A DNA stretch of 64,000 nt from Escherichia phage PE37, in sequence record NC_054929.1; one strand, written 5' to 3'. A model generated the notes under the pieces. That model saw nothing but the letters and a program-made list of their open reading frames with translations. It had not been told where the DNA came from and searched no databases. Below are positions 20,449 through 22,282 of the stretch, one piece after another. Numbering within the stretch: position 1 is the stretch's first letter; every line of letters starts with the position of its first letter. A program made the translations under genes and the position numbers.

Positions 20449-20478
20449 GTTTACATCCTTGTCCTTCCATGGTACTAT
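20449..20478 (+). promoter_or_regulatory. early promoter
   Basis: GTTTAC, 18-bp spacer, TGGTACTAT; shares an 18-mer with the motA promoter. Confidence 0.6.
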
Positions 20479-20521
20479 ACAACTATCAGCAATACTGCTG
20501 ACGATTAAAGAGGAAAACAAT

Positions 20522-20749
20522 ATGGCTAAAGTTGATATTGACATCGTTGATTTTGAATATATTGAAGAAATTATTCGTAATCGTTATCCTGAACTTAGTA
20601 TCACAAGTGTACAAGATTCTAAGTTTTGGAGCATTCAAATCGTTATTGAAGGTCCTTTAGAAGTTCTTGAGCGGTTTATGGCTAATGAATATTGTGATGG
20701 TATGGATGCTGAAGACACAGAATTTTACATGGGATTGATTGAACAATAA
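20522..20749 (+). CDS. hypothetical protein (75 aa)
   Basis: ATG 20522 with AAAGAGGAAAAC SD (track start is TTG at 20459). Confidence 0.5.
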
Positions 20750-20793
20750 TTATCAAGGGGCTATTACAGCCCCGTTAAAATGAGGAAATCAAA

Positions 20794-21180
20794 ATGGAAG
20801 TTGGAAAAACTTATATCATTAACCCTTTATTTAAAAATGACTTTGCTAACGAGTGCCGTTGCAATGTAATGATGCTAAATTTAATAGAGAAGCACGGACC
20901 TAGTTTTGTTGTAGATGAAATGGAAAGTGATGATTGTGCCGGTGAATGTGTGGTACATGTAACTATGGAAGATGGCACTGAATACATGGCGAGTGGCCCA
21001 CTTGAGACGTATTTTGAGATTTACTCTGAAGAATTCAAATACTTTACTGAGGTAACTTTAGAAAAGCCTCAATCCGCTAATGAAGGTATAGTTTCTGGCG
21101 TAACAAAAATTCACTGCATTGTTGACGAAAACAATGTAGATGAAATCATTGAACTTTTGCGAAAAACTTTCAAAAAGTAG
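20794..21180 (+). CDS. hypothetical acidic protein (128 aa)
   Basis: ORF with GAGGAAA SD. Confidence 0.5.
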   Translation: MEVGKTYIINPLFKNDFANECRCNVMMLNLIEKHGPSFVVDEMESDDCAGECVVHVTMEDGTEYMASGPLETYFEIYSEEFKYFTEVTLEKPQSANEGIVSGVTKIHCIVDENNVDEIIELLRKTFKK

Positions 21181-21209
21181 TTTACAGAAGGGTAGTAGTG
21201 TGATACTAT
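21180..21209 (+). promoter_or_regulatory. early promoter
   Basis: GTTTAC 21180-21185, 18-bp spacer, TGATACTAT; hairpin 21190-21214 encloses the -10. Confidence 0.5.
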
Positions 21210-21235
21210 TACCCTATCAACTTAAGGAGAATAAA

Positions 21236-21478
21236 ATGAGATTACAACGTCAGAGCATCAAAGATTCAGAAGTTAGAGGTAAATGGTATTTTAATATCAT
21301 CGGTAAAGATTCTGAACTTGTTGAAAAAGCTGAACATCTTTTACGTGACATGGGGTGGGAAGATGAATGCGATGGGTGTCCGCTTTATGAAGATGGAGAA
21401 AGCGCAGGATTCTGGATTTACCATTCTGATGTTGATCAGTTTAAAGCTGATTGGAAAATTGTGAAAAAGTCTGTTTGA
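21236..21478 (+). CDS. hypothetical protein (80 aa)
   Basis: ATG 21236 with AAGGAGA SD; track ORF 21140 start lies inside upstream gene. Confidence 0.5.
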   Translation: MRLQRQSIKDSEVRGKWYFNIIGKDSELVEKAEHLLRDMGWEDECDGCPLYEDGESAGFWIYHSDVDQFKADWKIVKKSV

Positions 21479-21488
21479 GGAAAATATT

Positions 21489-21848
21489 ATGTCTGACATT
21501 CATGTAGCTGGAATTGCTCGAGTAAGTATTCGTTGCCAACTTAAAACTGCGCCCGGGACGGCTTATATTAATTTATCACACGACCTATGTTCTAGTGAAA
21601 GACCATTAACTGGTGTAATTACGTTTTACGCTGGAGTTGGCGGAAACGAATTTACTGTAGGCGAATTTGTTGGCTGTAAATTAAAAGTTCAGAAGAATGT
21701 GTTAGAACTTTTTAGCGATCTTTATGGTGATAGTGATGAAGTTTTTGATGAAATCGCGCAAGCAGTTAACAAAGGAATGGTAACTTTAGTTAAAATGATT
21801 AACTCTATCGGATATGCTCCTGACCCTTTTCGATGGGAGATAATATAA
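21489..21848 (+). CDS. hypothetical protein (119 aa)
   Basis: ORF with GAGGAAAA SD. Confidence 0.5.
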   Translation: MSDIHVAGIARVSIRCQLKTAPGTAYINLSHDLCSSERPLTGVITFYAGVGGNEFTVGEFVGCKLKVQKNVLELFSDLYGDSDEVFDEIAQAVNKGMVTLVKMINSIGYAPDPFRWEII

Positions 21849-21940
21849 TTTTTGTATTTGAGTTTATGAATGATGAATTCTATTATGCAATGCTTTAAAA
21901 ATTGCATAGTCTTGATTTAAATGAATTTGAGGAAAATATA

Positions 21941-22282
21941 ATGCTTACTGAATACACTTGCTTTGCTAAAGATGATGCACATCCTGAACTGATTCTTGAA
22001 GTTAAGGTTAATACGCTTGAACAAAAATTTGATTGGAGCCTTTACATCTATCCTAAAAATATTATTGATGGTCCACAGAAATATACGCTTAATGACAAGT
22101 GCATTAGTGGTATCATTGGATATGGTACAAGTGAAAGCAAGTATTCATTAGAAGATATTCGCAATTCTCGTTGTGCGGTATCATATTTTGATACAGATAT
22201 AATTAAACATCTTTATAAATTGGTTCTTGATATTCGCAAAGATTTTACTGCCATCAAAAAGGCAACTAAGGAATTAAAATGA
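21941..22282 (+). CDS. hypothetical protein (113 aa)
   Basis: ATG 21941 with GAGGAAAAT SD (track TTG at 21902); ATGA-coupled to frd. Confidence 0.5.

Follow-up and report, generated by a model that had tools for sequence, protein, structure and literature searches.

The Gene 32-frd Interval of Escherichia Phage PE37 as a Variable Early-Gene Cluster of T-Even Phages

Between gene 32 and the dihydrofolate reductase gene frd, a stretch of 64,000 nucleotides (nt) from Escherichia phage PE37 (NC_054929.1; hereafter the window) carries five small open reading frames (ORFs) and two putative early promoters. This interval is very probably a Tequatrovirus early-gene cluster, a variable ("hyperplastic") region made up here of orthologs of frd.3, frd.2, and frd.1 together with a DUF7247 gene (ORF4) and a member of phrog_8592 (ORF5). 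Each of the five falls into a catalogued family, and many published T-even genomes carry annotations for them at this position; to that extent the finding is already known and ordinary. What the analysis adds is modest, namely a remnant of ORF4 in T4, the fossil of a gene of the RB32ORF231c type, an ORF5 cassette shared across genera, and a domain swap in frd.2. The reference phage T4 itself proves to be in an atypical, deleted state at this locus.

Coding Status and Family Membership

The five ORFs, which encode proteins of 75–128 amino acids (aa), all lie on the + strand at exactly the coordinates given in a first-pass annotation of the same DNA (Table 1). A GAGG or AGGA Shine-Dalgarno sequence is found 6–8 nt 5′ of each of the five ATG codons, and in pairwise Nei-Gojobori comparisons with orthologs in RB51, T6, KIT03, JS98, and FP43 the ratio of non-synonymous to synonymous substitutions per site (dN/dS) is below 1 for every gene. 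For four of the five, scores against curated Pfam families lie far above the cut-off; ORF5 belongs to no Pfam family and instead matches phrog_8592. The Pfam and PHROG matches, the Shine-Dalgarno sequences, and the dN/dS values together show that all five are genuine genes and none is a chance reading frame. The window is a genome segment of a Tequatrovirus (T-even phage), and Frd, the right-hand neighbor of the cluster, is 96% identical to T4 Frd (blastp).

The product of frd.3 matches PF05798 (Phage_FRD3) over the whole model (positions 1–75 of 75; 133.7 bits against a cut-off of 28.1, E 3.3e-39) and is 94.7% identical to T4 Frd.3 (blastp), with dN/dS of 0.10–0.30. That of frd.1 matches PF17438 (DUF5417; 114.6 bits, cut-off 23.9, E 2.5e-33) and is 98.75% identical to its T4 and 100% identical to its T6 counterpart, with dN/dS of 0–0.16; the Shine-Dalgarno sequence of this gene, AAGGAG, includes GGAG, which we take to be the cleavage motif of RegB. 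Frd.2 matches PF03197 (FRD2; 117.7 bits, cut-off 29, E 4e-34) and retains the C-terminal motif SGVTKIHCIVDENNVDEIIELLRKTFKK of the family alignment. All three genes are kept across Tequatro-, Dhaka-, Mosig-, and Gapriverviruses. ORF4 matches PF23905 (DUF7247) over residues 1–112 (105.7 bits, cut-off 27, E 2.4e-30) and phrog_3566 (E 1.8e-45); PF23905 is present in 20 of 20 database homologs, and the protein is 100% identical to PE37_0031 of phage PE37. The match of ORF5 to phrog_8592 extends over positions 1–113 of 113 (E 2.7e-76). The five proteins are small and mostly acidic, with isoelectric points (pI) of 4.05, 4.45, 4.91, 5.02, and 6.72, and contain no enzyme motif.

ORF4 and the Deletion in T4

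Between gene 32 and frd, the T4 record (NC_000866) annotates frd.3, frd.2, and frd.1 alone. The first-pass annotation had given just these three genes for T4, and synteny bears out its expectation that some of the ORFs are extra, these being ORF4 and ORF5. The position and orientation of the cluster are the same in T4 and the window, as are the terminator behind gene 32 and both early promoters. Blastn breakpoints and direct reading both show that collinearity between the two extends past frd.1 to nt 58 of ORF4, after which T4 resumes at the start of frd; window nt 21547–22277 are missing. The remnant of ORF4 in T4 reads ATGTATGTCATTGAAATTATCCAAGTAAGCATTCGTTTTCAATTAAAATAG, a 16-codon ORF. From these breakpoints, the absence of ORF5 from T4 and the reduction of ORF4 to 58 nt are due to deletion of nt 21547–22277 in the T4 lineage.

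Database counts indicate which of the two states is the unusual one. The DUF7247 gene was found in 421 phage records, including Klebsiella T4-like phages and Escherichia phages of ~150 kb at 33–38% identity, and the RB32ORF231c-type gene in 451, whereas the T4-type frd.1/frd junction (at least 99% identity) occurs in only 14. T4 is therefore an atypical, rare deletion derivative at this locus, and Tequatroviruses commonly carry a DUF7247 gene and one more small gene ahead of frd. Thus, the two ORFs are additional with respect to T4 but are not special to this phage. Existing annotation records both ORF4 and ORF5 in RB51, RB68, and wV7, only ORF4 in T6, and ORF5 in Dhaka-, Gapriver-, and Mosigviruses.

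The commonest Tequatrovirus arrangement is that of T6 and KIT03, in which frd.3, frd.2, and frd.1 are followed by a DUF7247 gene and RB32ORF231c. The window resembles these phages in having five genes and in the presence of ORF4 (86% identical in T6), and DNA homology covers frd.1 and ORF4 and reaches 87 nt into the gene that follows. However, their fifth gene, RB32ORF231c (81 aa, acidic), is unrelated to ORF5, and they carry an N-terminal frd.2 domain of T4 or KIT03 type. RB51 carries frd.3, frd.2, ncORF239c, frd.1, ncORF237c (ORF4), and ncORF236c (ORF5). With the RB51/RB68/wV7 group the window shares its frd.2 allele (97% identical), the fossil spacer described below, a nucleotide-identical ORF5, and an ORF4 that is 87% identical. 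RB51 differs from the window in an additional, sixth gene located between frd.2 and promoter 2 (ncORF239c, 86 aa); its frd.3 is a variant 82% identical to that of the window, and it lacks segG between genes 59 and 32.

A Gene Fossil and the ORF5 Cassette

By DNA alignment, the 92-nt "spacer" before ORF5 (21849–21940) is the dead 5′ end of RB32ORF231c. It aligns with the first ~87 nt of that gene in T6 and KIT03, the ATG start has changed to ATA, an in-frame TAA is present, and homology to T6 ends at 21935 (blastn).

The body of the gene has been replaced. Sequence comparison identifies ORF5 as a cassette that was recently exchanged between T-even genera and took the place of RB32ORF231c in an RB51-like sublineage, a conclusion drawn from its near-identity to EAWsc9 and JS98 and from synonymous divergence (dS) that is low against the diverged frd and frd.1. 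The ORF5 protein is 100% identical to those of RB51, RB68, and wV7 and 93.8% identical at the aa level to that of the Dhakavirus JS98. Against JS98, dN/dS of ORF5 is 0.10 and dS is 0.33, compared with dS of 1.23 for frd and 1.89 for frd.1. The window equals the Gaprivervirus EAWsc9 from the ribosome-binding site TGAGGAAAATATAATG onward, a sequence that in EAWsc9 directly follows frd.1. Nucleotide identity is 99–100% to EAWsc9 over most of ORF5 and 80–100% to JS98, and falls inside frd to 50–75%, or to 50–70% in the case of EAWsc9. The cassette is thus joined on its left at the ribosome-binding site of ORF5 and on its right at the beginning of frd, where the ORF5 stop codon overlaps the frd start codon (ATGA). 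An 18-nt repeat of the ribosome-binding region at 21474–21491 and 21926–21943, together with the likeness of TTTGAGGAAA to TTTAATGAAA of RB32ORF231c, may suggest recombination at short homologies.

The gene for ORF5 was found in 78 phage records, and among 1.8 billion representatives its family forms only two clusters at 50% identity; an exhaustive HMMER search of these representatives with the ORF5 profile added just one cluster, apart from a spurious match to a repeat protein. The order in JS98 is two frd.2 paralogs, orf232, frd.3, frd.1, orf229, and orf228 (ORF5), and in EAWsc9 and the Mosigvirus FP43 an ORF5 homolog lies directly upstream of frd. The window is like JS98 and EAWsc9 in having an ORF5 family member in the same place, abutting frd. 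It differs in what precedes that gene, which in EAWsc9 is frd.1 and in JS98 is orf229, and in possessing a DUF7247 gene and the RB32ORF231c fossil, both absent from those phages, whose flanking genes are 50–80% identical.

RB51 ncORF239c (locus 2312–2572) and JS98 orf232 (1696–1956) differ at about 3 of 86 aa, as read by eye, though the two phages belong to different genera, and these genes constitute an apparent second cross-genus cassette.

The frd.2 Mosaic

Conserved as a gene, frd.2 is a mosaic in which the N-terminal domain has been exchanged for an allele of the RB51/Mosigvirus type. Nucleotides 20810–21090 are non-homologous to T4 (blastn breakpoints). Over its N-terminal 98 residues, the protein shares 29% identity with T4, 96% with RB51, and 72% with one of two paralogs in the Mosigvirus FP43, whereas the C-terminal 30 residues are 97% identical to T4. 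For T4 Frd.2 a 2025 study predicted an LSm-like N-terminal domain common to GoF and MotB.1, the family being marked by a bent, five-stranded beta-sheet of LSm/SH3-like type (PMC12152347). The N-terminal domain encoded in the window aligns over its full length with T4-type Frd.2 at the 29% identity given above, and by homology would adopt the LSm-like fold as well.

Two tandem frd.2 paralogs each are present in JS98 (locus 936–1694) and FP43 (locus 1674–2484). The N-terminal allele of the window and RB51 is nearest to ORF A of FP43, and the T4 type is nearest to frd.2b of JS98; the Tequatrovirus alleles may descend from an old duplication.

Early Promoters and RNA Elements

The first-pass annotation had placed early promoters at 20449 and 21180, and here it finds good support. 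Both sites read GTTTACA-N17-TACTAT with a TG two bases 5′ of the –10 hexamer, and both fit the TTTACW-N17-TAYWAT consensus described for the PST/T4 pair (PMC4122927). The pattern GTTTAC-N15-TGnTAnnnT has nine matches in the window, all on the + strand, against 0.05 expected from shuffled sequences, and it is kept at both homologous positions in T4, T6, RB51, and KIT03. Promoter 1 retains both hexamers around a spacer that differs from that of T4; promoter 2, which begins on the final base of the frd.2 stop codon, is almost identical to its T4 counterpart. The two sites are accordingly best described as predicted T4-type early (sigma-70) promoters, and they favor the early expression that the first-pass annotation had proposed for these genes. 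The seven other exact matches start at 40, 3182, 5647, 29801, 33126, 36144, and 45110, those at 29801 and 45110 being almost identical over 30 nt. The 92-nt spacer was also considered as the site of a middle promoter dependent on MotA, an idea that was rejected: TGCTTTA is present but is followed by no TAnnnT 11–13 nt downstream, and the spacer is a gene fossil.

Promoter 1 is preceded, at a distance of 32 nt, by the intrinsic terminator of gene 32, which is identical in T4; the two together make a stem-loop-plus-early-promoter (PeSL-like) layout. Promoter 2 has no upstream hairpin. In T4-like phages, recombination at promoter, terminator, and ribosome-binding-site motifs has been reported for hyperplastic regions (PMC4122927), and promoter-early stem-loop (PeSL) cassettes have been described, in which a stem-loop precedes an early promoter, a Shine-Dalgarno sequence, and a start codon beside indels or replacements (PMC2839356, PMC4122927). 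Indels cluster at promoter 2, with ncORF239c of RB51 just upstream and a 72-nt insert of T4 just downstream, in a manner that by analogy fits the published behavior of hyperplastic regions and PeSL motifs. The junctions of ORF5 and of the T4 deletion, in contrast, lie at ribosome-binding sites or inside genes and not at promoters. The T4 insert, absent from the window, separates promoter 2 from the frd.1 ribosome-binding site (NC_000866 locus coordinates ~4510–4585, minus) and holds an unannotated hydrophobic mini-ORF of 22 codons, MFAPYIMAAVMLVCLYLLIKAC, with its own GGAG Shine-Dalgarno sequence.

The hairpin between frd.3 and frd.2 has a folding energy of –11.7 kcal/mol (z –2.1), and T4 has the same stem with another loop; the element may serve in RNA stability or processing. 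At 21190–21214 (+), the spacer and –10 region of promoter 2 are covered by an imperfect inverted repeat, GGGTAGTAGT ... ACTATTACCC, which is identical in T4 and, in RNA reading through from promoter 1, could fold into a hairpin. No known RNA family was found in 19000–23400. The frd.3 mRNA is among the abundant NAD-capped transcripts of T4 (bioRxiv 10.1101/2024.04.04.588121).

Proposed Mode of Action

On the reading preferred here, that of a variable Tequatrovirus early-gene cluster, host sigma-70 RNA polymerase would fire both promoters right after infection, as expected from their sequence and from the established biology of T4. Promoter 1 would give rise to a frd.3-frd.2 transcript and promoter 2 to one carrying frd.1, ORF4, and ORF5 and running on into frd and td, with ORF5 and frd probably coupled in translation through the ATGA overlap. 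As small, mostly acidic, presumably cytoplasmic proteins without enzyme motifs, the products would most likely bind host or phage macromolecules. Frd.2 would act as an LSm-like RNA-binding modulator, following the prediction in the literature, and ORF4 and ORF5 would be dispensable, host-conditional accessory factors that probably matter only in particular hosts.

The first-pass annotation had recognized no motif in the five ORFs and proposed profile searches and structure prediction, which for ORF4 and ORF5 yielded low-confidence models and no fold or profile match. The AlphaFold2 (AF2) models have pLDDT values of 64.8 for ORF4 and 66.7 for ORF5, and show four to five N-terminal beta strands (five in ORF4) followed by helices. 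Foldseek found no match at E ≤ 0.001 for either model against PDB or for ORF4 against BFVD, where only DUF7247 proteins of its own family appeared (E 1.2e-3). The ORF5 model gave matches to NrdR, Pur-alpha, MRP1/2, and PC4-like chains that were judged to be noise (E 0.9–5, TM 0.2–0.36). Searches of PDB sequences with phmmer and hmmsearch, covering all five proteins and their families, gave nothing usable, and neither PADLOC, on the defense side, nor NCBIfam returned a match. Nothing was found in the literature on frd.1, DUF7247, or phrog_8592; among the five genes, published work on function deals with Frd.2 alone.

Several points weigh against the preferred reading or parts of it. The roles it gives to frd.3, frd.1, ORF4, and ORF5 are ones we infer, and the use of the promoters, the read-through into frd, and the coupling of ORF5 to frd are likewise read from sequence. 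With models of such low confidence, the missing fold matches for ORF4 and ORF5 are weak evidence. Published results on frd.2 conflict: a CRISPRi-ART screen scored it "Fit," the sole T4 fitness gene of unknown function (PMC11879866), whereas T4 carrying an amber mutation in frd.2 plates normally (PMC12152347). The transfer of ORF5 may have run into or out of Tequatrovirus. Constraint could account for part of the high similarity of ORF5 across genera, but recent exchange is favored by the near-identity at synonymous sites.

Alternative Explanations

The first-pass annotation had taken the whole interval for an accessory island of immediate-early host-takeover or anti-defense genes, which would make the two extra ORFs counter-defense proteins. 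We give this only a small chance of being correct. Such roles are a reasonable prior for variable early genes: ORF4 and ORF5 both lie behind a T4-type early promoter and vary between close relatives, ORF5 moves between genera, and ORF4, which also occurs in the ~150-kb Escherichia and the Klebsiella T4-like phages, has a relatively high dN/dS (0.29–0.78). An early promoter, variability, mobility, and high dN/dS are traits often seen in phage counter-defense genes. However, no likeness to anything characterized emerged from PADLOC, NCBIfam, PDB sequences, or Foldseek against PDB and BFVD, and no link between these families and defense was found in the literature that was searched. The term accessory island suits ORF4, ORF5, and the N-terminal allele of frd.2, which are variable, but not frd.3, frd.2, and frd.1 as genes, which are conserved across genera. 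That T4 infects laboratory Escherichia coli well without ORF4 and ORF5 makes the two dispensable and is silent on their role. In practical terms, ORF5, DUF7247, and the swappable N-terminal domain of Frd.2 form a short list of early accessory proteins for counter-defense and host-takeover screens.

A somewhat smaller chance attaches to the idea that ORF5 is an actively spreading cassette whose strong, host-dependent advantage drives its repeated capture across T-even genera. In Tequatro-, Gapriver-, and Dhakaviruses the gene is nearly the same at the nucleotide level amid neighbors of 50–80% identity, and every insertion places it where it would be coupled in translation to frd. Such an advantage might come from a new fold that blocks a defense system, or from protection or modulation of the folate/deoxythymidine monophosphate (dTMP) pathway. 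DUF7247 (ORF4) could be a second factor of the same kind.

ORF4, ORF5, or both might instead be highly diverged members of the GoF/MotB.1/Frd.2 family that act on RNA through an LSm-like N-terminal domain. The predicted N-terminal strands and C-terminal helices of both models agree with the gross layout of that family (PMC12152347), and both genes lie near frd.2. The idea is nonetheless improbable, as hhalign against a 28-sequence Frd.2 alignment gave probabilities of 0.8% for ORF4 and 0.5% for ORF5 (0.1% for ORF4 against ORF5), and no LSm-like protein appeared among the Foldseek matches of these low-confidence models, ORF4 retrieving only DUF7247 proteins from BFVD.

We think it very improbable that ORF5 is a partner or regulator of dihydrofolate reductase in the nucleotide-precursor machinery. 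In Tequatro-, Dhaka-, Gapriver-, and Mosigviruses its homolog is invariably the immediate neighbor of frd, the stop codon of the one overlapping the start codon of the other, but gene order is conserved for the whole region and adjacency carries little information. Most Tequatroviruses, as well as T4, have a functional frd and no ORF5, and the NrdR-like Foldseek matches are not significant (E around 1, TM 0.24).

The PemK/MazF-type toxin that the EAWsc9 record (PQ341120.1) names as the product of an ORF5 homolog is hardly credible: the size (113 aa) and the strands-then-helix layout of the AF2 model are similar, but eight family members gave no Pfam PemK or CcdB match even at E ≤ 10, hhalign against provisional sequences of MazF, Kid, and EndoA returned a probability of 0.09%, neither a MazF nor a CcdB chain figures in the 50 best Foldseek matches from PDB, and searches of PDB sequences gave no match.

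Feature Coordinates and Neighboring Genes

Table 1. Coordinates of the gene 32-frd cluster and flanking features in the window.
Feature	Position	Strand	Description	Evidence
Gene 59	18124–18777	+		
segG-type gene	18779–19411	+	GIY-YIG homing endonuclease, 210 aa	phrog_7504, E 8.5e-134
Gene 32	19471–20376	+		
Terminator after gene 32	20399–20417	+	Predicted intrinsic (rho-independent) terminator	GGGGACC-CTAGA-GGTCCCC followed by six T; fold –14.3 kcal/mol
Early promoter 1	20449–20478	+	Predicted early promoter	–35 GTTTACA, 17-nt spacer, extended –10 TGgTACTAT
frd.3	20522–20749	+	75 aa, pI 4.05 (very acidic)	PF05798, blastp, dN/dS
Hairpin between frd.3 and frd.2	20757–20773	+	GC-rich hairpin	GGGGCU-AUUAC-AGCCCC, no T-run
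frd.2	20794–21180	+	128 aa	PF03197, blastn breakpoints, domain identities, family alignment
Early promoter 2	21180–21209	+	Predicted early promoter	GTTTACA, 17-nt spacer, TGaTACTAT
frd.1	21236–21478	+	80 aa, DUF5417	PF17438, blastp, dN/dS, start context
ORF4	21489–21848	+	119 aa, DUF7247 (RB51ORF237, phrog_3566)	PF23905, phrog_3566
Pseudogene fragment	21849–21940	+	~87 nt of the 5′ end of an RB32ORF231c-type gene	DNA alignment with T6, KIT03, RB51
ORF5	21941–22282	+	113 aa, phrog_8592 (RB51ncORF236c, JS98 orf228)	PHROG match, blastp, dN/dS
frd	22279–22860	+	Dihydrofolate reductase, 193 aa; right border of cluster	blastp, annotated orthologs
115-aa ORF	22880–23227	+	phrog_1928, RB32ORF229c type; between frd and td	
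td	23273–24133	+	Intron-less, 286 aa	

T4 likewise has the segG-type gene in the interval from gene 59 to gene 32, where RB51, T6, and KIT03 have no gene. Cleavage by a homing endonuclease and co-conversion of nearby markers could be one source of the mosaicism seen next to it, from gene 32 to frd. On the other side of the cluster, td is one uninterrupted ORF in the window, while in T4 and T6 it holds a group I intron with I-TevI. T4 does not have the 115-aa ORF between frd and td, and there the stop codon of frd overlaps the start of td; in the window this insert is bordered by copies of TAAATGAAA (around 22855 and 23271), which fits the "9 bp repeat" remark in the RB51 record.

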